Virus genome (UHGV): UHGV-0010228
Strand: one strand, 5' to 3'
DNA from: a virus
Length of the DNA stretch: 64,000 bases
A model generated the notes under the pieces. It did no database searches and was not told the DNA's origin. It was given only the letters and a program-made list of their open reading frames with translations. Shown piece after piece: positions 797 through 45,665 of the stretch. Both the position numbers and the translations under genes were made by a program. Each line of letters starts with the position of its first letter. The first letter of the stretch is position 1.

Positions 797-3700
797 ATGA
801 GTGATGCTTTAAAAAACATTGCAATTCAAGCAGAAGGTTTAATCAGTAAAGTAACCAATAGTATATCTAAATATAAAACCGGGATTACCAATCTCGGATT
901 AAGTAAAGATAGTTCTAAAGATAATAAATTATCTACAGTAATTAATGACTTAGAATCAGGAACTATTGCCCATGCACTTCCATCACCTAATCCAGTATCT
1001 AATGATATGATGAGATATTCGATGGAATTTTATGACCAAAAAAATCCAAATGCATCTATTGCTATAGGTACAAATAATGCATTTAGATTGGGTATTGATT
1101 TTAGAGTATTTAAATATAATTTTTTAGAAAAAATAGAATCCGCAACTTGGGTTCTTAGTGAAAATGATGCAAAAAATGGATATATTTATTGTATATCTGA
1201 AGGTAAACTATATAAGATTACGATATTTAAAGATCGAGCTCCAGATGTAATGGAGCTCGTAATGGGTAAATATACCTTAAAAGGCAGAATTATTCAGTGG
1301 GCAGATGATAATCATCCTAGTAGTAAATTATACCTAGGATTAGTAACTGACAAAAACTTATTAATTGTATTCGATACAACAACTGGAGTGATTGAAGAGT
1401 TAGCAACTCAGCCATCCAGTGAATATATTAGTTATTTAGCTCAGCCATATCCAATAATATCAACACCGTTATCAGATACTGCAATGTTACATGTGTTTGT
1501 ATATAAAGATGCATCTGGCATTTTAAAACTTGGTAGAACTACTGAGACTTTTAGAAATATAACAACCGAAAACTACACTGCATCAAATATTGGATTATAT
1601 TCAATAAATAATATTATTTATTTCTCAATATTAAATAATAATACTACAGAGTTATATACATTTAATAGAACGAATATTGTTCAGCTTGGTAACTATGCAA
1701 ATTCTAATAAATCTATGTATTGGGTAAATAATATCGCATATGGTATAAATGGAACTTCATTGTTTTCATCTACATCCAATACATTTACAAATTTAGGTGG
1801 ATTAAGAGTTGCTAACGATAAATTCGATTTATTTACAATGGTAAATGACCAAATTATTATTGTTGATAAGAGCGGTATTTATTTATCAGGAGATACAAAT
1901 CATCTATCAAATAATCCAACATTATCATATTATGAGATATTAGGATCTAATATTCATATAAATTCAAATAAGAATTATATTGCAATAAATTCTGCAGTTA
2001 AACCATCAATTATAGACAATTATTTTGTAAGTATGATGTATTTAGTTCGTAAGGACGATCCTAATCAATATATATTATACTATAATCCGCTTGATTATGA
2101 AAATATGGGATTAGATGTTAATTTATATATTAGAATTAAAATTAACGGCGAATATAAATTATCTACATATAAAATAAATAATTATGATTATGAATCAACA
2201 TATAATGAAATAACCGAATTTAATCCTTTAGATTCATTGAATGTCATAATTCCGTTAGTTGATGTTAGTCCATATTTAGATTCATTTTCATCAACTGAAA
2301 AAATATATGATATGTGGTGCACATATTCTAATTATAATATAGATTCGTTATATTCAGATATTAATAAAATGGTTATTAATAAGAATTTGCCAGTAAAATC
2401 AAAAGGTGCAACGTCATTTGGTCTCGATGTTACCAGTGGTAACTATTATGAATGGTATAAGCAAATTCGGGGTAATAATGGCAGTATTGGCAGTGCCACA
2501 ATTGATGAATTAAATGGTGAAATTATTCGAATTCTATATGATACTTCTAGATCATTATACTATGCTGTTGGATATAAAAATGATGATGATGGACATTCAA
2601 ATCCATTATTAATTATATATAATGAAAGCGATGATGATAATGGGTGGCAGGAAGTAAAATGGGACGAAAATGATGATGAAATAACATTTTATTCAGCAAC
2701 CAATTTAGAAGGTGAATTATATGATGTATCATGGCAAAGTAATTCACTATTCTGTGTTGGAATATATTATCCAAATTCAAATTCACCAACAGGTTCGTTA
2801 TATATCAGATATGAATTTGACTCTTCAGGTAATTGTAGTAGAAAATACTATATGACTGATTTAATAGATCGAAATCCTGAAAATGTAGATGGAAAATCTA
2901 TAATTAAAACTGGTAATATATTTTTATCATCAATTGATAATATTGATAAAATATATAATAAAATCCCAGGTAAGTATATCAAATCATCAGTTTATGCTAA
3001 TGGTATGGGATTATATGATATATGTGCAAATGATAGTGTATATGTTGCAAGTATTGCAACATCTGCAGCAGCAAATAGTTATCCAGAAAGTTATTACAGT
3101 TATGGTGTAATTCCCCCAATCTCAAGAATATTAGGAATGGGATTACTGTATTCATCTAATGGAATAGATTGGTATCCTTCAAGCATTCAAGCCGGTTTGT
3201 ATCGATCAATCGCAACTGATGGTAAAAATTTTATTGCAGTACCATTCTACAATAAGGATACAACTAAATATAAATTGAAATTCTCAACTGATGGAAAGTA
3301 TTGGAGTGATTTATCAACCACCCCGGATGAAAAATGTACAACAATTTATTATCAAAACAATAGATGGGTTCTTAGAACTGATTCTGGTATATGGTATAAA
3401 ACGGGTTCTATAACCTCAGGTAGTTGGACTAAAGGGACAACTCGTGGTGGAGATTTATATTTCTTAAATAATCGATGGTATCTTATGAATGAATCTGATG
3501 GTGGATCATTATGTTATTCAGAAAATTTATCATCATGGACAGTAATTAAATCATCGAACGCTTATTATACAGACATGGCATATGGTAATGGCATATATGT
3601 TGCAACAACAAATTTATCAGGTTCATCTTCTCCATTTCTATATTCATCAGATGGCATATCATGGTCATATTCAAATTTAGCACAACCTTCGTCATATCAT

Positions 3701-6700
3701 AGTCTTGGAATGAGTGTTGGCTATGGAAATAATATGTTTGTTGCTGCTACAGATAGCTCAATGTATTATTCTACAAACGGAGCCGATTGGACAGCGTGTG
3801 ATGGTAATGGGATAGGACCTGCAACTCAAATCATATATTGTGATGGAGAATGGCTTGCTACTAATTTTAGTAATAGTGGAAGTTATCATTCACTTAGGAA
3901 TTCACATGATGGAAAATGGTGGAATGCGAACATGTATGATGAGGGAGACGATATAGATCAGCATGGTAGATGGATATCTGCTAAGATTTGTAATGGTAAA
4001 TTCTATGGTTTATATGGCAGTGATATGTTTTATAACTGTCATCCAGAATATGCAGTTCCTCCCGAAGGAAATTATCAGTATGCTCTTAAAATTCACAATA
4101 ACGAATTAGTGAAATGCTTTAAAGACTTTACTATAACATGTAATAATAAAGATTACAAATATCAAATTGCAATGACTAAATATAATTTATATTATGAATA
4201 TAATAATGGAATTTCATATTCATCATTTGCTAATGGGCTTGAATTTGAACAAATGGACATTGATTATGAATATAAAACATTAATAGCAGTTGGAGCTTCA
4301 TATAATTATGATAGTACCGAAAAACATGGTGGGGTTGTCGTATGTGTAGGAAATCAAAAGAATGATAATAATCCTCAAGGCCCATGGTATGAAACATCAC
4401 TCTGCAATGAAGATTATTATAAGAAATTTGATAAACCTTTATTATCTGTTAAATGCGTAAATCATCTTTGGGTATTTGGTAGTAATGGTAAAGGATTAGC
4501 ATATTTTGAAGAAATTGAGGAATTAACTGATCAGAAAAATCTCACATTAACGCAATCAAATATTACAGAGGGTGTATTTAAAACTATTGATTACCGTGAT
4601 GGATTATGGGTTGCTGGTAGAAATGATAGTCCTGGCGGGGTATATTATTCTACGGATGGTAAATCATGGACTGCACCATCTGTAACATCGATGTGTGTCA
4701 ACGACATAACTCATTCTGATAAATATTTCGTTGCAGCATGTGAGTTTGGTATTAATCCACCTTCTAAAGCTCCAATTGCATATTCACAAGATGGAAAATT
4801 ATGGAATTTTATTAACCGAAATGATATGTTAACAAAATTAGGCGATGGTAGTCTTAATCATATAGATTGTGATAAAGTATTTAGTTATGGTGATTACGTT
4901 ATTGCTTCTCCTGAATATACTGGAATGAATTATGTATCTGAAAATGGATATCAATGGTATTATACGAACGTATATATTGGGTTTTCTGATGTAATATCTA
5001 ATGGTACTGTAGTTATAGGAATTGGTGGGCAGAATTATCATGGAATTTATTTTTCATCATCCGACTATATAGCATCAAAAATTTCATCATCTAATTATTC
5101 TATAGGATGTTTTTATAGCTCAAAATTTTCATCTATAAATTTCTCTGCAGGTTGTTATGGTGGCAATCTATGGCTACTGGGTAGCGGCTCAAATATATAT
5201 TATTCAACAGAAGCACAGCCTGATAGTGAGAGTGATTGGACGACAAAAACTGCACATAGTGCTCTTACAAACATTTATAAATTATATTGGTATAATAATA
5301 TATATCTTGCATCAGATGAATCAAAGGGTATATTCTATTCTGTAGATGGTAAAACTTCGTGGACATGGAGTAATGTTACTCAAGGAAAATATAAATTCAT
5401 GTATTCTTTAATAGGTCAATATCATTATGCATATAATGACGATGTAAGAAATACTGGTTTATACTATTCGTCGGATGGTAAGTCATGGACAAAAAATCCT
5501 TCAATTGTAGATGTATATGCAATATCTAATGGAATAGCTAATGATGTAGTTGGTGCTTTCAGATATGGCACAAATGCATATTCCACATTAGGGATATATC
5601 ATTCAACTGATGGCAAAAATTGGTTTAAATATAATAATGGTAAAATTAAAAAAGATTCGAATAGAATATTGATTAAAAAACTCAATGATGTTATCGTTAA
5701 CATCGGTGATGGATATATACAATATATGACAAAAAGTAATACTGATTGGAAAGATGCAATTGTGAACTCTGGAGTAGGTGATTTATCAAATATGATATTC
5801 ACTGATATAGAAGCTCATAATGATGTATTTGTGTTAGTAGGTAAGGCTGACAAATCTAAAGATTCAAGTGGAAATCAGGTAATATTAGTATCTAGAGATG
5901 GTATCAATTGGTCTGATGATAAAATTTATTTCGTAGCAAATTCATCATTGGCTGGAGTAGAATATGTTGATGGAAAATTCATAGCAACCAGTGAAGGAGG
6001 ATCCACTTACACCAATAGTTATGGAATATACTACTCAATCAATGCTAGCGAATGGAAGTCGGCACTTTCTACATCGTATCTTGACTCAAATTATAGATTC
6101 AGTAAACCCGTTAAGATTAATGATTACTGGTATACTACAAAATATAATCCAGATACCTACAATCAATATTCAACAAACACTGTTTATTATAGCAAAGATT
6201 TAACAAAATTTAATACTACAGAAACAAATGCTGCACCTATATCAGTATATGATGATACTGAAAATAATCAGTATATTGTAGGATATTCAGATGGTACTAT
6301 ACGATATACCGAAGAGTCGGTAGAAGAGTATATCGATTCTGACTATATATTAATATCTGGATATTTTGAAGGTGGATTATCAACTGATGTATATAATAAA
6401 AAATATATTCCATTTACATATATAATTAATGGATCAAATCTTGAACTTGATGATATTACATTAGATGATGCTAAGAGAATTATTAATTATGATTTTGATA
6501 ATTATTCTTCTGGATATAATTTAGAAGTAATATCATTATCAGGTAGTAAAACTCCTTATAATTATACAGGATATGATTCATTACCAATGACCAAATATTC
6601 ATTCATGACTCTTCAATATCAATACTATGAATTAGATAATAAGATTGGATGGTTCCCTAAAATATTATTATATGATAATGAATTCAATTGTGAAGAAGTT

Positions 6701-7300
6701 GATTTATATAATTTTATTTTAACAGATTTATTAGGTAAAATCCATTTAGATATTAAAGCGATTATAGTTTATGCTGAATCAAACTCTCCAATCCCGATCG
6801 ATGCTGATGTTGTAGGTTCTTATATATCTGAAAATGGAAAATTTGCTATGAAATTTCATCAGATAATATCATCAGACTTAGTTACGCATTTATATGGTAG
6901 TAATACGTGGGTGGAATATCCAGCTAACGGTGGGCATCACAATACAATGTATTATGATATATTCTATGAACCAGCAGGAGGTACAACTTATCCTTGTATT
7001 GTTGATAATATTGATAAAATCGAAAAGATGTTTGGTGGTATTGAACCTAAGTATTTAAATAGGTATTATTTTGATTATGATGCTTCAGTACCTAGCAGTG
7101 GTAAATTGAGTTCTATTGAAATGAATTCTCAATTTGAAGGTGAATTTTACTTACCACCGGTATTGGTATATGAGGGATATAATTATAATGATTATATAAT
7201 ACCAGCTAGTGATAATATAGAAAAGAATAGATATTTTGTTAGAATTTATAATAACTATGAACGTGTTGATAGTGAAATTATGACTATTACACTAAAATAA
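797..7300 (+). CDS. giant (2167 aa) BNR/Asp-box repeat protein; putative tail fiber/receptor-binding or glycan-degrading virion protein
   Basis: GAGGTG RBS. At least 10 S-x-D-x-G-x-(T/S)-W motifs (YSTDGKSWT, YSSDGISWS, YSTNGADWT, FSTDGKYWS, YSQDGKLWN, YSSDGKSWT, HSTDGKNWF, VSRDGINWS and others), typical of sialidase-like beta-propellers. N/S/T/Y-rich beta-type composition. Terminator hairpin directly after the stop. Confidence 0.85.
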   Translation: MSDALKNIAIQAEGLISKVTNSISKYKTGITNLGLSKDSSKDNKLSTVINDLESGTIAHALPSPNPVSNDMMRYSMEFYDQKNPNASIAIGTNNAFRLGIDFRVFKYNFLEKIESATWVLSENDAKNGYIYCISEGKLYKITIFKDRAPDVMELVMGKYTLKGRIIQWADDNHPSSKLYLGLVTDKNLLIVFDTTTGVIEELATQPSSEYISYLAQPYPIISTPLSDTAMLHVFVYKDASGILKLGRTTETFRNITTENYTASNIGLYSINNIIYFSILNNNTTELYTFNRTNIVQLGNYANSNKSMYWVNNIAYGINGTSLFSSTSNTFTNLGGLRVANDKFDLFTMVNDQIIIVDKSGIYLSGDTNHLSNNPTLSYYEILGSNIHINSNKNYIAINSAVKPSIIDNYFVSMMYLVRKDDPNQYILYYNPLDYENMGLDVNLYIRIKINGEYKLSTYKINNYDYESTYNEITEFNPLDSLNVIIPLVDVSPYLDSFSSTEKIYDMWCTYSNYNIDSLYSDINKMVINKNLPVKSKGATSFGLDVTSGNYYEWYKQIRGNNGSIGSATIDELNGEIIRILYDTSRSLYYAVGYKNDDDGHSNPLLIIYNESDDDNGWQEVKWDENDDEITFYSATNLEGELYDVSWQSNSLFCVGIYYPNSNSPTGSLYIRYEFDSSGNCSRKYYMTDLIDRNPENVDGKSIIKTGNIFLSSIDNIDKIYNKIPGKYIKSSVYANGMGLYDICANDSVYVASIATSAAANSYPESYYSYGVIPPISRILGMGLLYSSNGIDWYPSSIQAGLYRSIATDGKNFIAVPFYNKDTTKYKLKFSTDGKYWSDLSTTPDEKCTTIYYQNNRWVLRTDSGIWYKTGSITSGSWTKGTTRGGDLYFLNNRWYLMNESDGGSLCYSENLSSWTVIKSSNAYYTDMAYGNGIYVATTNLSGSSSPFLYSSDGISWSYSNLAQPSSYHSLGMSVGYGNNMFVAATDSSMYYSTNGADWTACDGNGIGPATQIIYCDGEWLATNFSNSGSYHSLRNSHDGKWWNANMYDEGDDIDQHGRWISAKICNGKFYGLYGSDMFYNCHPEYAVPPEGNYQYALKIHNNELVKCFKDFTITCNNKDYKYQIAMTKYNLYYEYNNGISYSSFANGLEFEQMDIDYEYKTLIAVGASYNYDSTEKHGGVVVCVGNQKNDNNPQGPWYETSLCNEDYYKKFDKPLLSVKCVNHLWVFGSNGKGLAYFEEIEELTDQKNLTLTQSNITEGVFKTIDYRDGLWVAGRNDSPGGVYYSTDGKSWTAPSVTSMCVNDITHSDKYFVAACEFGINPPSKAPIAYSQDGKLWNFINRNDMLTKLGDGSLNHIDCDKVFSYGDYVIASPEYTGMNYVSENGYQWYYTNVYIGFSDVISNGTVVIGIGGQNYHGIYFSSSDYIASKISSSNYSIGCFYSSKFSSINFSAGCYGGNLWLLGSGSNIYYSTEAQPDSESDWTTKTAHSALTNIYKLYWYNNIYLASDESKGIFYSVDGKTSWTWSNVTQGKYKFMYSLIGQYHYAYNDDVRNTGLYYSSDGKSWTKNPSIVDVYAISNGIANDVVGAFRYGTNAYSTLGIYHSTDGKNWFKYNNGKIKKDSNRILIKKLNDVIVNIGDGYIQYMTKSNTDWKDAIVNSGVGDLSNMIFTDIEAHNDVFVLVGKADKSKDSSGNQVILVSRDGINWSDDKIYFVANSSLAGVEYVDGKFIATSEGGSTYTNSYGIYYSINASEWKSALSTSYLDSNYRFSKPVKINDYWYTTKYNPDTYNQYSTNTVYYSKDLTKFNTTETNAAPISVYDDTENNQYIVGYSDGTIRYTEESVEEYIDSDYILISGYFEGGLSTDVYNKKYIPFTYIINGSNLELDDITLDDAKRIINYDFDNYSSGYNLEVISLSGSKTPYNYTGYDSLPMTKYSFMTLQYQYYELDNKIGWFPKILLYDNEFNCEEVDLYNFILTDLLGKIHLDIKAIIVYAESNSPIPIDADVVGSYISENGKFAMKFHQIISSDLVTHLYGSNTWVEYPANGGHHNTMYYDIFYEPAGGTTYPCIVDNIDKIEKMFGGIEPKYLNRYYFDYDASVPSSGKLSSIEMNSQFEGEFYLPPVLVYEGYNYNDYIIPASDNIEKNRYFVRIYNNYERVDSEIMTITLK

Positions 7301-7310
7301 ATAAAAAATA

Positions 7311-7337
7311 AAAGAGTATGATAATATCATACTCTTT
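7311..7337. terminator. bidirectional intrinsic terminator between convergent genes
   Basis: aaagagtatgat-aat-atcatactcttt perfect stem flanked by A/T runs. Confidence 0.7.
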
Positions 7338-8374
7338 TATTTAATTTGTAAAATAGAATCTTTAATCCTATCTCTTGGTACGCCATAATCTTTTTCATTT
7401 GGATAGATATTTCTATGAATATATATATGATCAAACCAGATCTTATTATATTTACTTAATAAATATCTCTCATGCTCTTCATTGCTCTTATCATTATCTG
7501 AATATATATGAATATTCAGATTGGTATTAATACCTACGTTTAATAAATATCTCAATATTGTATTATACGAAAATCCACAACATGCATAATATAAATTATT
7601 ATCGTTATTACAATTACACACATTCTCATATATAGATATTATATCAAATGTACCTTCAGCTATATGTATATTCATATCTGAAGTATATAATAAATCAAAA
7701 CTATTAGGTATCATATAGAAGTTATTAGGCGATATATTATAGGGGTCTAAATTAAGTTTTATATAACGATTATAATCAGGATTATTCTTTACACATCTCC
7801 AGGTAATTTTACAATTATTATTAGATAAGAATCCAACATAATTTGAATTAATAAAACTTAAAAACTTTGACGATACATTTGGAATTTCATCTATAGAATT
7901 TGCTTTCATAAAATCATATATATCAAATACAACTTTTAAATCCCTCAATTCTTCATATGATAAATATAATCCTAATCTACTATTAATATATTCTTTTTTG
8001 AAATTTAATCTATTATCAGTTGCTAACGGAACTATATATTTCTTATTTCGAATATTCATAAATGGGTTATTTTGAGTTGAATTCTTATTTGATATATTTA
8101 AATTCTTAGCGAAATCACTATCAACTTTACAACCAATATCATCTAGAACATCTGGTGTTAATATTCCACTAGATGGACATTTAAAACATCTATAGAGCAT
8201 TGGTCCATCAGAATTAACGTCTATTTTTATAGAGAAATGCCCATGGTCTGGGTTTTTTGAATCTCCACAGTATGGGCACCTAACAGTCCATTGTGTTTCT
8301 TGAGAATTTGGTATGCATACAGGTAGTGTTTTTATATATCTAATTACTTCTCTCTTTACTTCTTGATTAGTCAT
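7337..8374 (-). CDS. DnaG-type DNA primase (zinc-ribbon + TOPRIM)
   Basis: CPYCGDSKNPDHGH...YRCFKCPSSG matches the DnaG zinc-binding domain (CPFH...yHCFGCG). IHIAEGTFDI and IYSDNDKSNEE match the TOPRIM E and DxD motifs. AGGAGG RBS. Confidence 0.8.
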   Translation of the reverse strand: MTNQEVKREVIRYIKTLPVCIPNSQETQWTVRCPYCGDSKNPDHGHFSIKIDVNSDGPMLYRCFKCPSSGILTPDVLDDIGCKVDSDFAKNLNISNKNSTQNNPFMNIRNKKYIVPLATDNRLNFKKEYINSRLGLYLSYEELRDLKVVFDIYDFMKANSIDEIPNVSSKFLSFINSNYVGFLSNNNCKITWRCVKNNPDYNRYIKLNLDPYNISPNNFYMIPNSFDLLYTSDMNIHIAEGTFDIISIYENVCNCNNDNNLYYACCGFSYNTILRYLLNVGINTNLNIHIYSDNDKSNEEHERYLLSKYNKIWFDHIYIHRNIYPNEKDYGVPRDRIKDSILQIK

Positions 8375-8395
8375 TTACTTTTCCTCCTATTCATA

Positions 8396-8450
8396 TTTAT
8401 AATATATTACTGATTTTTTCTTTGGTCTTAAATCAGTAATATATTATAAA
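8396..8450. promoter_or_regulatory. perfect 21-bp inverted repeat (13-nt spacer) in the divergent intergenic region between the primase and RNAP beta-prime-fragment genes
   Basis: tttataatatattactgattt (8396-8416) is the exact reverse complement of 8430-8450. Located between the two divergent start codons. Confidence 0.5.
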
Positions 8451-8499
8451 CATGTAGGTATAAAATATACTCAAGGTTTTATTTAAGGAGGTTAAATAG

Positions 8500-9990
8500 A
8501 TGAGTACAAAAAATTATAATCCAATTACCGATTCATTGTTAACTGGAGCAAGAATCACAAAGATCCCTTTAGATCTTGATTGCTGGAATGATTTTCAAAC
8601 TGGTAAGGGAATCAGATTAACTTCAGTTGAAAGTTTTGATAAAAAGAATGAAAAGATTGAAAATGGTCTTCAGTCAGAATTCTTTGGTACAGATTTCGCT
8701 GACGATGAAGCATTTAAAGAAAGATTTAGATGCAAATGTGGTAAATATATAGGATCATCATATCGAGGAATGATATGTGAAAAATGTCAGTCTGAAGTTG
8801 AATATGTTGATATTGATCTTGAAAAGTTTGGATGGATCGTGATGGATCATTTTGTTGTAATAGCTCCTGTATATTATGCTAAGCTTATTGATGCATTAGG
8901 CAAAGTTGATGGTGAACCTGTAATCAATCATATTCTTACAGTAAAATATGATGATACTGATAATGTTGAATATACTGATAAAGAATTGAAGATGTTAAAA
9001 AATCACCCTTACATTAAAAAAGGAATGATTTGGTTTCATGATCATTATAAAGAAGTACTTGAGTATTATATGCGTCAGAAATCAGATAAAAAGACGGCTT
9101 TATTTGAAGAATTAATCAATGAAGTAGATTGCGTATTTACTCATTGTATTCCAGTATTTTCATCAGTATTAAGAACTGAAATGCCTAATGGAGAAAAAGG
9201 ATCTAAATCTTATAAATTAAAGATCAATACTATATATAAATCAATCATTAAACTTTCTAATGCAATAAATAAAACTAATGTTACAGATATGGACGATCAT
9301 GTAATTAATTCTGTAAATATAAAATTAGCTGCAGTGCAGAAAGAGATTGGCGTATTATTTGAAGAAATAGTAAAGACTATGACTTCAAAGACTGGAATAA
9401 TTAATGGTAAAGTATTGGGCGGACGATATAATTTCTCTAGTAGACAGATAATAGTTCCAGCATCAGGTAGAATAAGATCAGATGAAATAGAAATGGGATA
9501 TTTACCATTTCTGGAATTATATAGATACGAAATCATTAACTATTATGCAAAGATCAATAATTGTACTATACAAGAAGCTAGTTATGTATGGAAAAAAGCA
9601 ACCAATCATTTTGATCCAACTATATTTAAAATAATGGAATACATGGTTTCATCTTCAAAGTATAATAAATTTATGTGGGTTATATTAAACAGAAATCCTA
9701 GCATTAATTATGGATCATTTATTTCAGTACGAGTTGCAAGGGTTAAACCTGGATTAAATGATAAAACATTAGGAGTATCTCCACAGGTTATTATACCTAT
9801 GAACGCAGACTTTGATGGTGATGTGTTAAATGTTTATAGAATAGTCGGTGCAGATATGGCTAAAGATATAAGTAAGAATCTTAGGCCTAGTACAAACTTA
9901 TTTGTATCAAGAATGACAGGTAAAGCTAATACTGAAACTCTTCCTAATAAAGAAGAGATAACCTCATTCTGGGCATTTAATAATATCTAA
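8500..9990 (+). CDS. multisubunit RNA polymerase beta-prime subunit, N-terminal fragment (phage-encoded split RNAP)
   Basis: NADFDGD catalytic Mg-binding motif (IIPMNADFDGDVLNVYRI). N-terminal Cys cluster CKCG...CEKC (beta-prime zinc-binding element). RQIIVPASG resembles beta-prime region C. AGGAGG RBS. Confidence 0.85.
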   Translation: MSTKNYNPITDSLLTGARITKIPLDLDCWNDFQTGKGIRLTSVESFDKKNEKIENGLQSEFFGTDFADDEAFKERFRCKCGKYIGSSYRGMICEKCQSEVEYVDIDLEKFGWIVMDHFVVIAPVYYAKLIDALGKVDGEPVINHILTVKYDDTDNVEYTDKELKMLKNHPYIKKGMIWFHDHYKEVLEYYMRQKSDKKTALFEELINEVDCVFTHCIPVFSSVLRTEMPNGEKGSKSYKLKINTIYKSIIKLSNAINKTNVTDMDDHVINSVNIKLAAVQKEIGVLFEEIVKTMTSKTGIINGKVLGGRYNFSSRQIIVPASGRIRSDEIEMGYLPFLELYRYEIINYYAKINNCTIQEASYVWKKATNHFDPTIFKIMEYMVSSSKYNKFMWVILNRNPSINYGSFISVRVARVKPGLNDKTLGVSPQVIIPMNADFDGDVLNVYRIVGADMAKDISKNLRPSTNLFVSRMTGKANTETLPNKEEITSFWAFNNI

Positions 9991-10011
9991 ATTATATGGG
10001 AGGATAAAAAT

Positions 10012-10680
10012 ATGAGTATTGATTGGAATTTTAGTCGCGAATTATCAGCGATTCATATTTATGGAGAAGCTAATTTAGAAAACATTTATGTTGGAGAAGA
10101 TAAGCGTAATTATTTCATATGTAATATTGATGACAGCAATATATCAATAGCAAGAGAAATATTTGATAGATTAGAACCATGTGAAGGATCTATACATAGC
10201 AGTATTGAGATTGAAGATCCAGATGAAAAGTTCAAGAAATGGGTTGAAATTGTGAATTCAAAATTAATTGGACCTCCAGATAGTGAATGTGCAGAAGCAC
10301 TATACGGAAATATGATGCTAGATTTTGTGAAATATACTGAATATGGTGGAGATTGTGTTCATAAGTATCATTTTATGTTACCTAATCATAATATTCCATT
10401 TAATTCTAATAATGTAATTGAGTTAACTTTTGATAAATTATATAAATTGATAACATCAGATTTACCACATAGTGCAATTATATCTATTTTAGTAAGTAGT
10501 GGCATTTGTGGTAAAGTGATGCATCGAGCAGGATTTTATAAAAATCTCACAACCGCAGAAATTGAAGATAAATATATTGAATTAGTTAGTCGATCATATA
10601 TAAAATGGATTAGAACTCATACATTATATGATGAGATTTATTGGAATCTGGCTAAAACTGTCAGGTTGGGATTTAGATAA
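10012..10680 (+). CDS. hypothetical protein
   Basis: GGGAGG RBS, 222-aa ORF, terminator downstream. Confidence 0.6.
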   Translation: MSIDWNFSRELSAIHIYGEANLENIYVGEDKRNYFICNIDDSNISIAREIFDRLEPCEGSIHSSIEIEDPDEKFKKWVEIVNSKLIGPPDSECAEALYGNMMLDFVKYTEYGGDCVHKYHFMLPNHNIPFNSNNVIELTFDKLYKLITSDLPHSAIISILVSSGICGKVMHRAGFYKNLTTAEIEDKYIELVSRSYIKWIRTHTLYDEIYWNLAKTVRLGFR

Positions 10681-10858: not shown

Positions 10859-13800
10859 GTGCGAAAGGTTAAATATTATAAATGCCCAGTGTGTGGAATG
10901 AAGTATCAATCATTAACAACCTGGACAAATCATCTTAATAAACAGCACCCGAACCAATTACCAAAAGGTTTCACTCCTGCACAGTATTTTTACTATTTAC
11001 AAACTGGAAAAGATCATGGGACTTGTATAGTATGTAAAAATCCAACTAAGTGGAATGAAGCTACTGGTAAATATGATAGATTCTGTGATAACCCAAATTG
11101 TAAAAAAGAATATCGTGAGTTATTTAAAAAACGAATGATTGGTAAATATGGAAAATCAACACTATTAGATGATCCTGCTCAACAGCGTAAAATGCTAGCC
11201 GGTAAAAAGAATAGTGGAATGTATGAATTTGAAGATGGTGGTAAGGTTGAATTTGTATCTACATACGAAAAAGACTTTTTACAGATGTTAGATAAATTTC
11301 TTCATTTTTCATCTTCTGACATTATGGGTCCATCACCACATACATATTATTATGAATATAAAAATCCTGAAGATTTAGAAAATGAAGGAAAGAAATTCTA
11401 TATCCCAGATTATTATATTCCATCTATTAATCTTGAAATAGAGATAAAGCAAAATACATCTACGCATCCAAAGATTCTTAGAATAGATAAGGTAAAAGAA
11501 AAAGAAAAAGATGCGATGATGAAAACTATAAGAGGTGTTCGTTATATTAAGATAATGGATAAAGATTATAGCAATTTCTTTGATCTTTTACTTAAGTTAA
11601 AAGAAGAGGCTATAGGGGATTCATCTGCATTAGAATTTGTAGTAGAAGATGCAAGATCTAATGGAGAAATCTGTTTAGAAAGTAAACGATCTGAATTACC
11701 TGATAGTGCATTTGGAATATCATCTGAAAGAAAATTTCCATTGGATACTCCGGATCATGTATTATCTGCTATTAAATTTTTTAATTATGCCAAACCTAGT
11801 GAAGAAAAAGAATTAGCCGGTAAAATAATAAAAGCAATTAAAAAATTTAATATCGAAAATGATGTATCGTTTAGTGATAAGAATAGATTCTCCAAATATT
11901 ACAATATGCCAGCAAATGAAATGCTTGGAAATTTTAGTCCTAAGAAGATTATTAAAGGAATTGCTAATCTATTCAACTTAAGTAAACCTATTGAGACTGG
12001 AATTGTTAATACTAGTTACAGCGAAATTCTTGATCTCGGTAAAGGATATGGCTTATATGGTAAACCAGAAGTAAATAAGTATCTTACTTTATCAAAAGTT
12101 CATATTGATAACGTGAATGGTATAATCTCAATTCATAATATTAATTTCAATGAGTTAATATCTAGAATTAGAGATACCTATAAAGAAAGAAGACTTGATA
12201 AACTCTTTGATAGAACATATAAAGGTAGAGATATTAAAAGATTTAATGCTAAGAGGATAAGCAGATCTCAAATGAATATTACATCATTACAAGCACCAAT
12301 CTTTTTTGCATTAGAGTTGGCGGTTTTATTTAAAGAGCTTTATGATAAATATAAAACTCCTTTATACAGTCATATCGTTAAGCAACTTTATGAAAAAACC
12401 TGGTTGAAAGATAGTGATAATAGTGATCCAATTGACAGAACTCAGCCTCAATATGTCACTGATAGATTTAAAAAAGATTATACCTTAAAAGATTATCAGT
12501 TAGAATTTGTAATAAAATATCCTAAACTAAAGCATAAACTTAATTTAGACGGATATATATTAGCATTTGAGCAAGGATTAGGTAAAACTATAACTGCTGT
12601 AGCTTTAGCAGAAGCTATGTCTGATAAAATTAAGCATGTATATATTGTATGCCCTAATACATTAATGTATAATTGGAAGGAAGAAATCGCTAGCTATTTT
12701 GTAAATCCACCTGAATGTATAATATGTGGCAAAGATAAATCAAGTTCTAATACTAAATATTTCATTACTAATAATGAAGGTATTAAGAAAATGATGCCTG
12801 AAATTAAATCTTCAAGTGGTAATATGCTTATAGTTGATGAAATTCACAATTTTAGAAATTATGACGGTAAGAGAACTAAGGAATTATTGGATCTCAAAAA
12901 CAAATTAGGAACACATGATGTATTATTAATGAGTGGTACACCTATAAAAGCATTACCATCAGAAATAGCCCCTGCATTAAAATTAATAGATCCATTATTT
13001 ACAGATGATGCTGCTAAGGCATATACTAATTGCTTTAAATATGATTCATATTTAGCAATGGATATTGTAAATAATAGATTTGGACAGATAATGTATCGTA
13101 AGAAGAAAGATGAAGTTTTAAAATTACCAGAAAAACGAGAAGGCGAATTAAAGTTGGTAATTAAGAATTCTGATAAATATCTTCTTAAAAATGTAAGAGC
13201 AGTAGTAAAAGAGATATTCGAAGACGAATATGCCAAATTAGAAGAAGAAAATAAGAAGATCATACCTGAATTTAGATTTAATATCGAAAGGTATTCATTA
13301 GCTTCTAAGCAACAAACTAAATCTTATTTATCAAAGATATTATATATCAATGATGTAAATAATGATGAAGGATTTGGTGGTATGCATGAGTTAGATCAGA
13401 ACTTTATAGATACCTTTATTGATAATTATATTGCTAATAACACTACAATTCCTAAACCGCTTATAAAGACTCTTAAAGAATATGAAAAGAAATTAATATG
13501 GATGAAACGATCTGCTATGGGTAAAGCCATTGGTAGAGTTTATCCAAAATATAGAGCAGAGATGTTTAATGCTCTATTTGATGAAAATAAAGAGAGAATA
13601 TTTGAAATGATAAATAATAATATTAAAAAGACAGTAATATTCTCTCAGTCATTACCAGTTGTAAAGCACATTTATGAAACTCTTAATGCAAATGGTATAC
13701 CAACAGTTAAAATTGTTGGTGGGGTTAATCCAACTGATAGATCAGATATAATAAATAAATTCAAATACGATGAATCAGTTAGAGTTATCGTTGCAACTTC

Positions 13801-14059
13801 ACAGAGTATGTCAACTGGTGTTACGTTAACATGTGCATCATTAATGTTTTTCTTTGGACCTCCGTATCGAAGTGCAGATTATGATCAATGCTGTGATAGA
13901 ATTCATCGAATTGGACAAGATAGTGATGTTAATATTTATAATGTTACTCTTATGAGTAATGGTAAAAACTTATCTAATCGTATGGATGATATTCTAAAAT
14001 GGTCAAAAGATATGTTTGATGCTGCAATAGATTCAAATATTGATGGAGGTAATGTATAA
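10859..14059 (+). CDS. SNF2-family helicase with N-terminal C2H2 zinc finger and zinc ribbon
   Basis: CPVCGMKYQSLTTWTNHLNKQH is a perfect C-x2-C-x12-H-x4-H finger. Helicase motifs: I (GLGKT), II (LIVDEIHNF), III (LMSGTPI), VI (QCCDRIHRIGQ). Start assigned to GTG; a perfect RBS-ATG at 10852 lies in a different frame (see findings). Confidence 0.8.
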   Translation: MRKVKYYKCPVCGMKYQSLTTWTNHLNKQHPNQLPKGFTPAQYFYYLQTGKDHGTCIVCKNPTKWNEATGKYDRFCDNPNCKKEYRELFKKRMIGKYGKSTLLDDPAQQRKMLAGKKNSGMYEFEDGGKVEFVSTYEKDFLQMLDKFLHFSSSDIMGPSPHTYYYEYKNPEDLENEGKKFYIPDYYIPSINLEIEIKQNTSTHPKILRIDKVKEKEKDAMMKTIRGVRYIKIMDKDYSNFFDLLLKLKEEAIGDSSALEFVVEDARSNGEICLESKRSELPDSAFGISSERKFPLDTPDHVLSAIKFFNYAKPSEEKELAGKIIKAIKKFNIENDVSFSDKNRFSKYYNMPANEMLGNFSPKKIIKGIANLFNLSKPIETGIVNTSYSEILDLGKGYGLYGKPEVNKYLTLSKVHIDNVNGIISIHNINFNELISRIRDTYKERRLDKLFDRTYKGRDIKRFNAKRISRSQMNITSLQAPIFFALELAVLFKELYDKYKTPLYSHIVKQLYEKTWLKDSDNSDPIDRTQPQYVTDRFKKDYTLKDYQLEFVIKYPKLKHKLNLDGYILAFEQGLGKTITAVALAEAMSDKIKHVYIVCPNTLMYNWKEEIASYFVNPPECIICGKDKSSSNTKYFITNNEGIKKMMPEIKSSSGNMLIVDEIHNFRNYDGKRTKELLDLKNKLGTHDVLLMSGTPIKALPSEIAPALKLIDPLFTDDAAKAYTNCFKYDSYLAMDIVNNRFGQIMYRKKKDEVLKLPEKREGELKLVIKNSDKYLLKNVRAVVKEIFEDEYAKLEEENKKIIPEFRFNIERYSLASKQQTKSYLSKILYINDVNNDEGFGGMHELDQNFIDTFIDNYIANNTTIPKPLIKTLKEYEKKLIWMKRSAMGKAIGRVYPKYRAEMFNALFDENKERIFEMINNNIKKTVIFSQSLPVVKHIYETLNANGIPTVKIVGGVNPTDRSDIINKFKYDESVRVIVATSQSMSTGVTLTCASLMFFFGPPYRSADYDQCCDRIHRIGQDSDVNIYNVTLMSNGKNLSNRMDDILKWSKDMFDAAIDSNIDGGNV

Positions 14060-15177
14060 TGGGAAATTATTATACGATTAGACGATATGATACAAATTGT
14101 CATGTATATGAGTTTAATCCGGAAGTTGAACGGCTAGGTATTTCTATTGGAAATAAATTACGATTAACTAAATTATCATCTTTTGGTATAGACGAAGAAG
14201 AAGTTATTGATGAACATATAGTTGCTAAACTAAATGGGGGATTCTTTGATGCTTTAGTTGAAAATAAGTTCGATATCGAATCTTTCTTAGATGACGGATT
14301 ATTCTTTTCAAATTCATTTTCTGAATATCCTATATTATTATACTGGAAAGATTCTAAAAAATTAGAAGTTAAAACTAAGTTAACTAAAAAATTCTGCAAA
14401 GATCATGCTGATGAAATTGAATTTGCAGTTGGAGTTCCATATTCATTAGTAATTGATGGAGAAACTAATTTTTGCTTTTTAACAGATAAACTTAAAAAGA
14501 TATATAAAGAAGATCCATTTCAACGTGCACCAAGAACTATGATCGGCCAGAAACCAAATGGCACAATAGTTTTCGTTGCAGCTGAGGGTCGTTCATCCGA
14601 TTCAGTTGGGTTTACTATTAATCATAGTGCATATTTTATGCAAAATGATTTAGGTTGTACCACTGCTGTTATGGTAGAAGGTGGAGACAAAACTGAATTA
14701 ATGGTAAATAATAGTATAAAAAATAAACTTAGTGATGGTGAAGAAATTCCAATCTCTTCAGCATTTGTTGCTTATAGCACAACCGGCACTGAAAAGATTG
14801 AGTATTCTGGAGTTGGATATATAGTCAATCTTGCTAAAGGACAATTATTAGATTTACATAAATATCCATCTGATAATTCCAAAGTATTACATAAAATCCC
14901 CCTGGGCACACAGATAAATATCACTTCTATAGATATACAGGGACATTGGTATGAGATATCTGTATCAGAGGGGTGTGCAACATATCGCGGTTGGATTCCT
15001 CGGAGATATGTTGAAGATAAAGTTATAACAGTAAAAAATGATAATACACAATATATATCATTTAATAGAGGAATAAATGCAAATACAAACTTCAGGGTTT
15101 TATTTGAGGCTTATGGCTATTATAAGATCATGTATAATGGTGAAGAAGTTTGGATTACTGCTAAAGATGTCAAATAA
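14059..15177 (+). CDS. SH3b-domain protein, putative cell-wall binding/hydrolase-associated
   Basis: Two C-terminal bacterial SH3-like segments (GHWYEISVSEGCATYRGWIPRRYV; GYYKIMYNGEEVWI). ATG overlaps the upstream stop; GGAGG RBS. Confidence 0.65.
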   Translation: MGNYYTIRRYDTNCHVYEFNPEVERLGISIGNKLRLTKLSSFGIDEEEVIDEHIVAKLNGGFFDALVENKFDIESFLDDGLFFSNSFSEYPILLYWKDSKKLEVKTKLTKKFCKDHADEIEFAVGVPYSLVIDGETNFCFLTDKLKKIYKEDPFQRAPRTMIGQKPNGTIVFVAAEGRSSDSVGFTINHSAYFMQNDLGCTTAVMVEGGDKTELMVNNSIKNKLSDGEEIPISSAFVAYSTTGTEKIEYSGVGYIVNLAKGQLLDLHKYPSDNSKVLHKIPLGTQINITSIDIQGHWYEISVSEGCATYRGWIPRRYVEDKVITVKNDNTQYISFNRGINANTNFRVLFEAYGYYKIMYNGEEVWITAKDVK

Positions 15178-15872: not shown

Positions 15873-17009
15873 TTATTTAACCTCTACATTGATTTCTGCG
15901 ATTCCTCTCCAGACTCTACGGTCAGTTTTATTAACATGATTTAGATGCCGATAATTATTTACTTTATTACACCAATCTAAATGATTAGTAACATTAATTT
16001 TACTTGGATCAATATAGCAACAAGCTGCGACTTTTTCAATATCAGACAACTTATTGAAGTTTCTTGAATCTTTCTTCAATTTCTTGTTAATCTTTCTAGT
16101 CATCTGATTTAGATTGTCATAAAAATCGTTACGTAATCGTCTAATATGCCAGTTCGGTATATTATATCTCTCTATAATTTCTGCAACTGATAAATCACGC
16201 CTGTAAATTCTAACAAGATCCTGAGTTGATAATAAATACTGTTCTATAATATCATTTATCGACTCGCATCTCTGGTGATACGATTTATTTTCGATATTAA
16301 CATTTTTATCATCATCAATATTGCTATTGTTATCATTTTTATCATCCTTTTCTACAACTTCATGATTAATATTTTTTACTTTAATATCTTCATCCTGAAT
16401 TGAATATGAATCGAGCAACTTTTCAGTTGCATTTTTCCTTGCATTATTAAATGCTTCTAATATTGCTGTACCAGTATTAGTATTAAACTGGCCATTTACA
16501 TCATTAGCGGGCTTATCCCCAATCTTAAGATTTGGATGGGTCTGACCAACTAATGTAGTCATGCAGTCCTTACTAATATTCTCACTATTGGCAATTTCAT
16601 ATGATGGTGTAAATAAATATTCCACCGATTTTAAATATGGTGGAACTTCATCCGTTAACCCCATATGAAATGCTAACGCTTTAGTCACAGCCTTCATTGT
16701 AATGGAGTCAAGCGCTCCATTTGTTTTTGTTATATATTTAGAGTTTATTGTAATAGGGCTCCAAGGCTCAATTACAGACTCTCTAAAAATATCCGTCTGC
16801 TCTCCTCTACTCATACCATTAATGCAGACCTTTATTCCAGGTCTCTTCCTTGTAGTTAATGGTACTACAGTTATTGAGTCAAATAACTGATTTGGTTCAG
16901 ATACCACTACGAGTGGTCTATTGTCAAGATACTCAAACTGAGAACCATGTAATCCAGGTTCATTTACATAAACGATTGTACCTTTTGCGAAGAAGTGATT
17001 TGTACTCAT
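15873..17009 (-). CDS. MazF/PemK-like N-terminal domain protein with long C-terminal extension (possible HTH)
   Basis: Start set at the internal ATG with AAGGAGG RBS (MSTNHFFAKGTIVYV...). N-terminus KGTIVYVNEPGLHGSQFEYLDNRPLVVVS...ITVVPLTTRKR follows the MazF/PemK consensus (GdIv.vdf.p..G.E....RP.vVlS....v.v.PlTs). C-terminal DLSVAEIIERYNIPNWHIRRL is HTH-like. Confidence 0.6.
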   Translation of the reverse strand: MSTNHFFAKGTIVYVNEPGLHGSQFEYLDNRPLVVVSEPNQLFDSITVVPLTTRKRPGIKVCINGMSRGEQTDIFRESVIEPWSPITINSKYITKTNGALDSITMKAVTKALAFHMGLTDEVPPYLKSVEYLFTPSYEIANSENISKDCMTTLVGQTHPNLKIGDKPANDVNGQFNTNTGTAILEAFNNARKNATEKLLDSYSIQDEDIKVKNINHEVVEKDDKNDNNSNIDDDKNVNIENKSYHQRCESINDIIEQYLLSTQDLVRIYRRDLSVAEIIERYNIPNWHIRRLRNDFYDNLNQMTRKINKKLKKDSRNFNKLSDIEKVAACCYIDPSKINVTNHLDWCNKVNNYRHLNHVNKTDRRVWRGIAEINVEVK

Positions 17010-17121
17010 AATAAATTCCTCCTTTTTATTATTAATCATATGAGTTGTAACTTCATTATAATAATATATACACTAAAAATCTTTTTTTTTTCGGTGTATG
17101 TTAGAACGGAGGTATTCGTAA

Positions 17122-26214: not shown

Positions 26215-27429
26215 TTATTTAAAGAAGGTGTCTAAGACATTCTGTTTTGCATCTAACGTATCTTCAGCATCACTCATTAATCTAGAATTTGTTGAAGTTT
26301 TCTTTATGAAATCAAATTCGTTTACATCATTTGCTAAATTGATTTCTTTCTGTCGTTTAATTCTTTCTTCAGCTTCCTTAATAACTTCTTTGCATTTTAA
26401 TAATCTTGCATATGGAAGATTCATTCCTGAAAGAATTAAAATAAACTGTCCTAATGTAGTGTTACTTATAGAATAGTTTTCAAATATAGCTAATGGGGTA
26501 CCGATATAATCGGTAAGTTCAGAATAGTTACCAGATTTGGTAGCTTCAGCCATTTCTTCTGGACAATTGACAATAACACCCATCTGCTTAACAATACTAT
26601 CACGATTCATATCTGCCGCTGGTGATCTTCTTATCTTATCGATCATATACTTCTGTATTGAAGCTTTATCAACCTGCTCCTGAGTGACTTTATCTATCAT
26701 ATATACTGCACCGTAACCAGGTTCGCCAACAATAACTCTCATATCATTCTCATCTATCATGCCATTTTTAGATGCATTAAGATATTTACCAGCGATAGTA
26801 TTGATTGATGTTATAATATTATCAGCAACACCTGCATACGCAATATCATTTGAATCTTCTTCATAATACGATAAATCTGCAAGCATATATGATACACCTT
26901 TAATTTCACTTATTTCATTAATACAGTCTAATGTATTATACTGTGCCTGAATACTATCTGAAAGTTTAGGGAGTATCCCATAATACTTTATTATCTTAGA
27001 TGGATACATCTGTGTTAATAAAGATACGACAACTGGCGATATTCCAGATCCTGTACCTCCAGCAGTACTAGACACTACAAATACAATATCTGCACTTTCT
27101 ATAATCTTTGAGAATTCTGCATTAGTAAATAATTCTTTGCCATTATAATTGAAGATCTTCTTAGCATATTCTCTATTCTTACCTGCACCTCTTGCCTCTT
27201 TACCAGCAATAAATGAAGGTATATGTTCATTAACTACAGTATCATTTAAATCTTTTAATGATGAATTAATTGCAAATACACTATATCCTTCTCTATATGC
27301 TCTTGCAACTATTTGATTACCAGCATTTCCAATACCTATAACTGCAATTGACAATTTAACTTTATTTTCAAGATTTTCTCTTACATCAAGTATTGGACTG
27401 GCAGTTTTTATGTTATCTTCATATTCCAT
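26215..27429 (-). CDS. tubulin/FtsZ-superfamily GTPase (PhuZ/TubZ-like phage tubulin)
   Basis: T1-like loop IGIGNAGNQI near the N-terminus and tubulin signature VVSSTAGGTGSGISP (GGGTGSG with one substitution). 404 aa. GGAGG RBS. Confidence 0.8.
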   Translation of the reverse strand: MEYEDNIKTASPILDVRENLENKVKLSIAVIGIGNAGNQIVARAYREGYSVFAINSSLKDLNDTVVNEHIPSFIAGKEARGAGKNREYAKKIFNYNGKELFTNAEFSKIIESADIVFVVSSTAGGTGSGISPVVVSLLTQMYPSKIIKYYGILPKLSDSIQAQYNTLDCINEISEIKGVSYMLADLSYYEEDSNDIAYAGVADNIITSINTIAGKYLNASKNGMIDENDMRVIVGEPGYGAVYMIDKVTQEQVDKASIQKYMIDKIRRSPAADMNRDSIVKQMGVIVNCPEEMAEATKSGNYSELTDYIGTPLAIFENYSISNTTLGQFILILSGMNLPYARLLKCKEVIKEAEERIKRQKEINLANDVNEFDFIKKTSTNSRLMSDAEDTLDAKQNVLDTFFK

Positions 27430-27496: not shown

Positions 27497-28237
27497 TTAT
27501 TTTACTTTATCATTACCTCTAGGACCATTAATTTCTCCAAGATCAGTAATGAGATTTGTAGAAATACCTTGCATTGCAAAATATACATCTAATGTATTAA
27601 GAGCGACCTTATTATATGGATCATTATCTAAATCCTGAAGGCTTACATAACCATCTTTAGATATACTCTTATACATTTCAGCTTTAGCCTTAGTATCATC
27701 TGCTCTAGGTCCCATAAATTCTTTTAATGCATTATCAGCACCTAATGCTATAAGTGAATAAGTTTCAGTATCAGTATTTCTAGCATTCTTATCATGTCCA
27801 GTTACCTGACCAGTTAATGAACTTCTAGATTCAATTTCAATAGAACCTGCAGATTTCTTTAATAATGTCTGAGGCATTCGTTTCTCATGAATATATCCAA
27901 CTGGAACTGGGGTTGGAGTAACTGTCACTACATTAGGATCTTCACTATTATATGGTAATGCAACTCGTTCATATAATGGAACTTTCATAAATTTAGCACA
28001 GTTTTCTAAATCCTTCATTGTAAATACTCTTTCAAATTCTATTATCTCTAAATAGAATTGGGCATTATCATCATTAAAGAATTCCCTTATATGTCTATCA
28101 AATTCTTGATCAGTCATTTTATCATATTTCTCATGATATATCTTCGAATTATCACCAGTTGGATCTAATAGGTCCATAACCGAGGTTAAATAATTCATAA
28201 ATTCTTTACGCTTTTGTGCGATTGACTTCACTACCAT
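27497..28237 (-). CDS. hypothetical protein
   Basis: Start moved to the ATG (MVVKSIAQ...) preceded by GGAGGTG. Confidence 0.65.
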   Translation of the reverse strand: MVVKSIAQKRKEFMNYLTSVMDLLDPTGDNSKIYHEKYDKMTDQEFDRHIREFFNDDNAQFYLEIIEFERVFTMKDLENCAKFMKVPLYERVALPYNSEDPNVVTVTPTPVPVGYIHEKRMPQTLLKKSAGSIEIESRSSLTGQVTGHDKNARNTDTETYSLIALGADNALKEFMGPRADDTKAKAEMYKSISKDGYVSLQDLDNDPYNKVALNTLDVYFAMQGISTNLITDLGEINGPRGNDKVK

Positions 28238-28697
28238 AATTTTTAATAACACCTCCTATATCAATATCACATGATATTGTGGCATATTTAGATATCTCAC
28301 AAAATAACTCATATGATTTTTCAAATACCGAATCATTTCTATACAAAAAACAAGCAATGATATCATAGAACCAATGATCGTTCTCATCATCAATTGTTTT
28401 AAGATATGGATATTTTAATATATTGTGCTCTGTATCATATTTTGGTACATTTCTTTTATATTCATCATGATATGTCAATTCTAAGCAATATTGATATATA
28501 GAATTAGTTGTTTCATATAATTGCTCGGCAATTATTCTAGCGTTTGGATAATTAGCAACTCTGGATAAAATAGTTTTTCTTATATAGAATACATTAGCAA
28601 GATATTTATCAATCCATGCATATTCCGATAAACCACTTCGTACAAGATTTGCTTCAAATTCTTGTATAAAAATTCCAATAAATGCCATATTTATCAC
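28206..28697 (-). CDS. hypothetical protein
   Basis: 163-aa ORF; 3' end overlaps the next gene start. Confidence 0.6.
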   Translation of the reverse strand: MINMAFIGIFIQEFEANLVRSGLSEYAWIDKYLANVFYIRKTILSRVANYPNARIIAEQLYETTNSIYQYCLELTYHDEYKRNVPKYDTEHNILKYPYLKTIDDENDHWFYDIIACFLYRNDSVFEKSYELFCEISKYATISCDIDIGGVIKNYGSEVNRTKA

Positions 28698-45654: not shown

Positions 45655-45665
45655 TTTATTCTCCT

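Follow-up and report, generated by a model that had tools for sequence, protein, structure and literature searches.

A gene for the N-terminal part of the RNA polymerase beta' subunit

We analyzed a 64,000-nucleotide (nt) stretch of the virus genome UHGV-0010228 (hereafter, the window), which is AT-rich throughout (GC content, ~26 to 32%; 29% is cited for the phage), and focused on the gene at positions 8500 to 9990 of the plus strand, an ATG-started open reading frame (ORF) encoding a protein of 496 amino acids (aa). An initial annotation, made from the sequence alone and with exactly the same coordinates, had read this ORF as a stand-alone gene for the N-terminal part of the beta' subunit of a multisubunit RNA polymerase (RNAP), citing a catalytic NADFDGD motif and an N-terminal cysteine cluster of the beta' type. 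Both features are present (Table 1). The cysteines at residues 78, 80, 93, and 96 form a CxC-N12-CxxC pattern and are invariant in two alignments of homologues (91/91 and 58/58 aligned sequences). A phmmer alignment pairs residues 75 to 115 with residues 67 to 107 of Escherichia coli beta' at a constant offset of 8, which maps the four cysteines onto C70, C72, C85, and C88, the residues that we take to be the zinc-finger cysteines of E. coli beta'. Invariant positions in the alignment of 58 homologues comprise the four cysteines, R309, R315, R398, P400, and the three aspartates D437, D439, and D441. The beta' zinc finger and the double-psi beta-barrel (DPBB) with its magnesium-binding aspartate triad are both present, and the protein ends 55 aa past the motif, in line with the initial description of an ORF that stops a short distance beyond the active site. 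This tail is shared by nearly all close homologues.

Profile searches matched models of the N-terminal part of the largest RNAP subunit. PHROG family 2987 ("RNA polymerase beta subunit") matched with an E value of 1.1e-64 over profile positions 26 to 470 of 478, and Pfam PF00623 (RNA_pol_Rpb1_2) scored 34.3 bits (gathering cutoff, 25.3). The NCBIfam models for rpoC, gamma, and A' all matched as well, at scores under their full-length cutoffs, as is expected of a fragment. The top phmmer match in the PDB was the beta' N-terminal (beta'N) fragment of the non-virion RNAP (nvRNAP) of phage AR9, gp270 (7S00/7S01 chain d; E = 3e-41), followed at a distance by phiKZ gp55 (7OGP_A; E = 2.7e-17), and residues 294 to 487 paired with residues 406 to 582 of Mycobacterium tuberculosis beta', the DPBB/NADFDGD region. 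The alignments are co-terminal; that with gp270 (7S00_d) reaches the last residue of both proteins, which places the split of beta' at the same point. A split site just after the DPBB has been described for jumbo-phage beta' subunits (PMC7598289).

An AlphaFold2 model of the protein, built from an alignment of 58 homologues, had a mean predicted local distance difference test score of 80.8. Foldseek comparison of this model with the PDB returned 7S01_d (E = 2.3e-28) and 7S00_d as the best matches, followed by the cyanobacterial gamma subunit (9dvs_D; E = 1.5e-20), phiKZ gp55 (8QUE_A; E = 2.3e-20), and many bacterial beta' chains. Profile search, structure prediction, and alignment against the split fragments of AR9 and phiKZ, the three checks that had been proposed with the initial annotation, thus all bear out a beta' N-terminal fragment. 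We conclude that the ORF very probably encodes the beta'N fragment of a phage nvRNAP and is an orthologue of AR9 gp270 and phiKZ gp55.

Table 1. Positions of the beta'N gene, its regulatory motifs, and related genes in the 64-kb window
Feature	Position	Strand	Basis
beta'N gene of a phage nvRNAP (very probable)	8500..9990	+	ATG-started ORF, 496 aa; profiles, PDB, Foldseek
Codons of catalytic NADFDGD, aa 435-441; predicted Mg-binding triad D437/D439/D441	9802..9822	+	
Codons of zinc-finger cluster C78-x-C80...C93-x-x-C96	8731..8787	+	Invariance; E. coli beta' alignment
Ribosome-binding site AGGAGG of the beta'N gene	8486..8491	+	8 nt 5' of the ATG; read from sequence
AR9-type early promoter ATATATTATAAACATG of the beta'N gene (predicted)	8439..8454	+	Predicted start G8454, 46 nt before the ATG
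Divergent twin early promoter of the primase gene (7337..8374, -) (predicted)	8392..8407	-	Mirror image of the beta'N promoter
AR9-late-like motif AACATGTAGGTA (AACA-N6-TA), overlapping the beta'N early promoter	8449..8460	+	Single short motif
Downstream 222-aa ORF, not RNAP related, probably co-transcribed	10012..10680	+	Starts 21 nt past the beta'N gene
Partner nvRNAP betaC fragment, 807 aa	18093..20516	-	7S00_C (AR9 gp089), E = 1.8e-76; PHROG 3295, E = 9e-84; Pfam Rpb2_6
Partner nvRNAP beta'C fragment, 678 aa	48050..50086	-	7S00_D (AR9 gp154), E = 3.3e-48; phiKZ gp74, E = 1.6e-8; PHROG 3015
Partner nvRNAP betaN fragment, 586 aa	52280..54040	-	7S00_c (AR9 gp105), E = 2.2e-36
Virion-RNAP beta'C fragment, 406 aa	46590..47810	+	AR9 g264 (tblastn), E = 1e-56; PHROG 2962, E = 9e-59
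Small virion-RNAP beta C-terminal piece, 251 aa	27497..28252	-	AR9 g078 exons (tblastn); PHROG 3233, E = 2.7e-39
ThyA, DHFR, dTMP-kinase-like P-loop protein, dUTPase, NrdG set	45112..46526, 51369..52274, 57964..58410, 44556..45080	-, -, -, +	

Assignment to the non-virion polymerase and its partner subunits

Phages of this type carry a virion-packaged RNAP (vRNAP) and an nvRNAP made after infection. AR9 gp270 was annotated by its authors as an nvRNAP subunit, the beta' N terminus, and it is the only AR9 locus matched by our query; the virion counterpart, AR9 g145, gave no real match in tblastn even at an E value of 10 (one 13-residue chance match). On these sequence matches, we assign the ORF to the non-virion paralogue and not to the virion one. 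Genes for the three other fragments (betaN, betaC, and beta'C) are dispersed over the window, which therefore encodes a complete four-fragment nvRNAP core, and the reading of the ORF as one separately encoded piece of a split beta' subunit is supported. The operon containing the betaN gene is headed by a putative early promoter at 55306-55321(-). The betaC protein has a C-terminal extension of ~100 aa (residues ~700 to 807) beyond the region aligned with gp089, a protein of 665 aa.

Two pieces of the virion polymerase were also found. The beta'C fragment is preceded, 26 nt 5' of its gene, by a late-like AACA-N6-TA motif. The smaller piece, which has a weak match to residues 1223 to 1311 of E. 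coli beta, stands alone, whereas the corresponding domain of AR9 g078 is fused behind an HD phosphohydrolase and split by introns. A 163-aa ORF overlapping it upstream (28206..28697, -) had no match.

Early and late promoter motifs

The early consensus of AR9 was defined experimentally as AAATATATATTAT-(6N)-G+1 and attributed to the virion RNAP (PMC5312081); the 33 annotated AR9 early promoters yield AAATATATATTAT-N5-TGA. The motif ATATATTAT-N5-TG occurs in the window in 13 exact copies, while 1.21 are expected and none of 100 shuffles reached 13 (maximum, 6). The sites lie at 8392-8407(-), 8439-8454(+), and, all on the minus strand, 17054, 22669, 25388, 26124, 31309, 33189, 35047, 37753, 42288, 55306, and 58592. 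Twelve of the 13 are located within ~76 nt upstream of the start of a co-oriented ORF, one of them overlapping its listed start, and downstream of the thirteenth come a ribosome-binding site and the ATG of a short unlisted ORF. The two sites between the divergent beta'N and primase genes together form an inverted repeat of ~20 nt (CAGTAATATATTATAAA). The early motif also precedes the beta'N gene in several distant relatives from IMG/VR, once as the identical 16-mer, and the consensus is conserved although the proteins are <30% identical to those of AR9. Only the complete motif, including the spaced TG, was enriched; the loose motif TATATATTAT with one mismatch was not (117 versus 110). Neither were sigma70-type promoters around the beta'N gene (32 versus 32.6 expected), and host-RNAP promoters are thus not indicated. 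The AR9-type promoter upstream of the gene, together with the enrichment and co-orientation of the motif, leads us to predict that the beta'N gene is early and would be read, as in AR9, by the injected virion RNAP.

For late genes, the AR9 consensus is AACA-(6N)-TA/G (PMC5312081). Sites of the type AACA-N5-(T/G)TA were found at 10814, 31351, 42327, 44518, and 46564 on the plus strand and at 39425 on the minus strand. These six late-like sites are positioned 26 to 45 nt 5' of genes that have no early motif, among them the virion-RNAP beta'C gene and one for a structural component of the virion. We regard the AACA-N6-TA sites as candidate late promoters, suggestive only, for the statistical reasons given below. 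A further copy overlaps the beta'N early promoter (Table 1) and might be a second, nvRNAP-driven promoter of the gene, a weak possibility. The overlap resembles the arrangement in AR9, where an early and a late promoter in tandem keep gp270 "continuously expressed" (PMC5312081).

Proposed role of the enzyme

If the phage behaves like AR9 and phiKZ, its virions would deliver a packaged RNAP along with the DNA, and this enzyme would recognize ATATATTAT-N5-TG, start at G8454, and transcribe the beta'N gene along with replication genes. The four fragments would then form a catalytically active core free of alpha and omega, to which the beta'N fragment would contribute the ligands of the active-site Mg2+. 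As a member of the nvRNAP family, the enzyme would be expected to be insensitive to rifampicin, and its beta'N fragment would not be packaged in virions. Joined by a phage sigma-like specificity subunit, this core would transcribe the late genes, including those for virion proteins and the virion-RNAP subunits, for which the AACA-N6-TA sites are candidate promoters. Late transcription of this kind would make the phage independent of the host RNAP.

The nvRNAPs of AR9 and phiKZ require a sigma-like fifth subunit of their own (PMC7598289); the initial characterization of such enzymes as sigma independent is thus right for the host sigma factor and does not extend to the phage's own. AR9 gp226, searched with phmmer and blastp, had no homologue in the window, and a pattern scan with two short peptide patterns found no gp226-type subunit on IMG/VR contigs of the same clade. 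A profile-based database search likewise gave no hit in the window, in its flanks, or on clade contigs. An ORF of 469 aa (33596..35005), considered as a candidate on account of its size, had no match in PDB, Pfam, or PHROG.

Evidence against the assignment and alternative explanations

Several observations weigh against the picture drawn above. The TM-scores of the model to solved structures are modest (0.40 to 0.55), as expected when an extended subunit is modelled alone. The window contains neither the beta'N nor the main beta fragment of the virion RNAP, and profile hidden Markov models of the gp226/gp68 family (7 and 28 members) found no fifth subunit in the window or in ~19 kb of flanking sequence. 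The window amounts to ~27% of the genome and, together with the flanks, ~35% was inspected, and the negative result for the fifth subunit holds for this portion only. The unmodified AR9 late consensus occurs 6 times at 20 to 50 nt upstream of start codons versus 0.77 expected (Poisson p of ~1.5e-4), with this position window (-20 to -50) picked after inspection of the data and the motif partly defined post hoc, and a shuffle test over all intergenic DNA was not significant (19 versus 14.4). The late promoters are graded as suggestive only on account of these two points. Assembly, activity, timing, and promoter use of this nvRNAP are all inferred, by analogy with the characterized phages.

Three other explanations were weighed against an AR9-type nvRNAP beta'N fragment. 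The one that survives best accepts the protein as a genuine nvRNAP beta'N fragment and assigns it to a holoenzyme that reads thymine-form promoters through a specificity subunit either unrelated to gp226 and gp68 or diverged from them beyond recognition. The gene content of the window speaks for it. ThyA (TIGR03284, 179.8 bits; cutoff, 108), DHFR, a dTMP-kinase-like protein, and dUTPase are the opposite of the toolkit with which AR9 maintains deoxyuridine-containing DNA (dU-DNA), and the set, which would make dTTP and remove dUTP, implies thymine DNA; the AR9 matches in the window include no Ugi homologue. The AR9 nvRNAP strictly requires template-strand uracils at promoter positions -11 and -10 and rejects thymine at both (PMC7598289). 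Given this uracil requirement and the thymine-type gene set, promoter recognition must differ in detail from that of AR9. The failure to detect the gp226 family in the window, in the flanks, and on the clade contigs points the same way. However, that search covered only the ~35% of the genome noted above, gp226 relatives are highly divergent (phiKZ gp68 and AR9 gp226 are not obviously similar in sequence), the IMG/VR scan used just the two short patterns, and the base composition of the DNA is deduced from genes alone. Taken together, we consider such a holoenzyme possible but doubtful.

It is improbable that the ORF encodes instead the beta'N fragment of the virion-packaged RNAP, the early-gene enzyme. 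The two paralogues are alike in having a zinc finger, a DPBB, and a common split site (PMC7598289), and a secondary PHROG match (E = 6e-11) was to a different family labeled "RNAP beta subunit," phrog_2986. Yet the best matches are all non-virion (AR9 gp270 and phiKZ gp55), AR9 g145 went unmatched, the three best-matching partners in the window make up the non-virion set, and the gene lies behind a putative early promoter, whereas the vRNAP genes of AR9 are late (PMC5312081). The weakest explanation, a decaying or fortuitous fragment (a truncated cellular rpoC remnant in a phage or bacterial contamination of the contig), draws on the facts that the protein corresponds to roughly the N-terminal third of bacterial beta' and falls far short of the full-length NCBIfam rpoC cutoffs, but it is effectively refuted by 437 homologues (E of <=1e-5) that vary very little in length and end 55 aa past the motif, by invariant catalytic and zinc-binding residues, by the occurrence of an identical protein in several samples on 13 contigs with phage surroundings, and by co-termination with a crystallized AR9 subunit and the presence of a complementary beta'C gene.

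Source phage and relatives in the gut

The identical beta'N protein occurs on 13 metagenomic contigs, which include Hadza human-gut assemblies and a contig of 235,396 bp (ERZ27286939:k141_489957). The source of the window is an uncultivated human-gut jumbo phage of ~235 kb. A megablast search with positions 7000 to 15000 gave no nucleotide match to deposited phages, and the best proteins from cultured phages (phiR1-37, AR9/PBS1, BpSp, LPJP1, and Staphylococcus S6-like phages) are all <30% identical. In a large protein database, 437 beta'N homologues were found at an E value of <=1e-5, many of them 45 to 66% identical and encoded on contigs of 200 to 256 kb, and IMG/VR adds further members of the clade, such as a contig of 236,671 bp. 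In many relatives, the beta'N frame stops before NADFDGD, giving many proteins of 395 to 460 aa, while the tblastn match continues along the locus (IMG/VR loci L020, L022, L039, L041, L056, L059 to L061, and L063). This pattern is suggestive of active-site-proximal introns or inteins in those relatives, as in AR9 gp270. A Firmicutes host is plausible from the lysins with SH3_3 and amidase domains, the TubZ-type tubulin, and the GC content of 29%.

The beta'N gene is a textbook component of jumbo-phage transcription, and its main use here is to classify the contig, which it marks as a two-polymerase phage of the AR9/phiR1-37 lineage, presumably independent of the host RNAP. With >400 homologues, this lineage appears large in gut metagenomes. 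Its representative in the window shows a notable mix of AR9-type polymerases and a fully conserved early consensus with apparent thymine DNA and a TubZ-type tubulin. The AR9 nvRNAP strictly needs template-strand uracils, and the clade could therefore show how recognition is rewired. We tentatively propose, as possible but less likely than not, that the gut clade consists of AR9-lineage, two-RNAP jumbo phages that form no nucleus and have thymine DNA, and whose nvRNAP reads AACA-N6-TA in its thymine form by means of a re-engineered or nonhomologous specificity subunit. If so, the clade would be a natural experiment on template-strand recognition versus DNA chemistry, the AR9 enzyme being unable to accept a late promoter in thymine form, and it would break the reported split among RNAP-encoding jumbo phages between "uracil DNA without a nucleus" and "thymine DNA with a nucleus."

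Neighboring genes and other features of the window

The ORF that follows the beta'N gene had been described as unrelated to it, and our searches agree. It had zero matches in Pfam or PHROG, resembled neither any AR9 sequence nor the genes downstream of beta'N in AR9 (gp269) and phiR1-37 (g273), and had no conserved position beside beta'N in the IMG/VR relatives. We therefore reject the idea of a hidden RNAP piece or a conserved partner. No terminator was found between the two genes, and they probably share a transcript. Farther downstream, a 1,066-aa protein (10859..14059, +) combines an N-terminal zinc-finger endonuclease with an SNF2-type helicase. Its endonuclease domain is 48% identical to AR9 g233, a separate gene in that phage, and is the most conserved of the segments shared with AR9. 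Upstream, a giant protein of 2,167 aa (797..7300, +) has no family match and 12 Asp-box-like repeats (S-x-D/N-G-x-x-W); its neighbors on a flanking piece (L016, 376..4647 and 6524..9418) are proteins of 1,423 aa, with a faint BNR_2 match, and 964 aa. All three are probably receptor-binding or tail-fiber proteins. A perfect 17-bp hairpin with T/A runs (7306..7342) between the convergent giant-protein and primase genes is probably a bidirectional terminator.

The replication module of the window includes primase, an SNF2 helicase, UvsX, a split family-B DNA polymerase, SbcC, an NAD ligase, and Dda-like and DnaB-like helicases. NrdD is encoded just beyond the end of the window, on flanking piece L017. 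The nucleotide-metabolism genes as a set implicate an anaerobic host as well as thymine DNA, in contrast to the uracil-DNA relatives AR9, PBS1, and phiR1-37. A tubulin/FtsZ-family GTPase (26215..27429, -) is nearest to TubZ (4XCQ and 3V3T; E of ~1e-18) and not to PhuZ; it might help to position or segregate the phage DNA. A putative early promoter immediately precedes the gene for a 388-aa protein (15873..17039, -) with an N-terminal PemK/MazF-like toxin domain, which may be a host-takeover RNase. Candidate cell wall hydrolases are an NAGPA phosphodiester glycosidase with SH3_3 (14059..15177, +), a wall-binding domain that hints at a Gram-positive host, and an Amidase_2 protein (50403..51302, -), whose gene is located between those for nvRNAP betaN and beta'C. 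We detected no chimallin-like ORF in the window; a 716-aa ORF (42360..44510) that came into question as chimallin or NrdD had no PDB, Pfam, or PHROG match. A search of the window for tRNA genes found none.

Comparison with known RNA polymerases

The initial annotation regarded such systems as sparsely described in AT-rich Firmicutes phages. This was overstated, as annotated homologues exist in AR9/PBS1, BpSp, the Listeria phage LPJP1, and ~10 Staphylococcus jumbo phages, and crystal structures are available for AR9 (7S00/7S01). The beta'N protein adds a divergent member to a well-characterized family; the system is not of a new kind. Among solved structures, AR9/PBS1 gp270 is the best match (~28% identity). 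The two phages share the C-terminal split point, a dispersed four-fragment core, and the early-promoter consensus upstream; AR9 counterparts exist for 17 ORFs of the window, and the gene order from UvsX to betaC equals AR9 g086 to g089. They differ in that gp270 lacks the zinc-finger cysteines and has SGDYDGD at the aligned site, while the protein from the window keeps an intact zinc finger and the canonical NADFDGD and is in this respect more ancestral looking. The gp270 gene is interrupted by an intron with an HNH endonuclease, whereas the gene in the window is uninterrupted. AR9 has uracil DNA with Ugi and dCMP deaminase, in contrast to ThyA, DHFR, and dUTPase here; it has no annotated tubulin, and a homologue of its fifth subunit, gp226, was not found in the window. 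AR9/PBS1-like (Takahashivirus-type) phages replace dT by dU, support this with Ugi, dCMP deaminase, and a dTMP-ase while lacking ThyA, and have dU-dependent late promoters; by its gene content, the phage studied here does not belong with them.

The best match in a cultured phage is g274 (RpoC N terminus) of the Yersinia phage phiR1-37 (E = 4e-39; 29.5% identity across 83% of the query). The CxC...C..C cluster is retained in g274, and a tail of 53 aa follows its motif, which reads GADYDGD. Like AR9, phiR1-37 is a dU-DNA phage (PMC7598289; PMC5312081), and its host is Gram negative. In phiKZ, gp55 (7OGP/8QUE chain A) has the same role, nvRNAP beta'N, and the same split architecture, at a much greater distance. 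The late promoters of phiKZ (TATG) differ as well (PMC7598289). The window encodes a TubZ-type tubulin where phiKZ has PhuZ, and no chimallin was detected in it. phiKZ is a nucleus-forming chimallivirus.

Outside phages, the closest architectural parallel is the cyanobacterial gamma subunit (RpoC1), the third-best fold match, in which beta' is naturally split and the N-terminal fragment ends after the DPBB. The jumbo-phage and gamma split sites coincide (PMC7598289). Gamma, however, is a cellular protein of ~620 aa that is ~17% identical to the beta'N protein and works with alpha2 and omega in a sigma70-dependent enzyme, whereas the context in the window is entirely phage. The match to the gamma equivalog TIGR02387 reached 38 bits against a cutoff of 976, and the neighboring genes are phage replication and structural genes. 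The unsplit bacterial beta' subunit (RpoC) aligns with the beta'N protein over the zinc finger and the DPBB, and the parts that follow the active site in bacteria, the bridge helix and the trigger loop, sit in the window on the separate beta'C protein.

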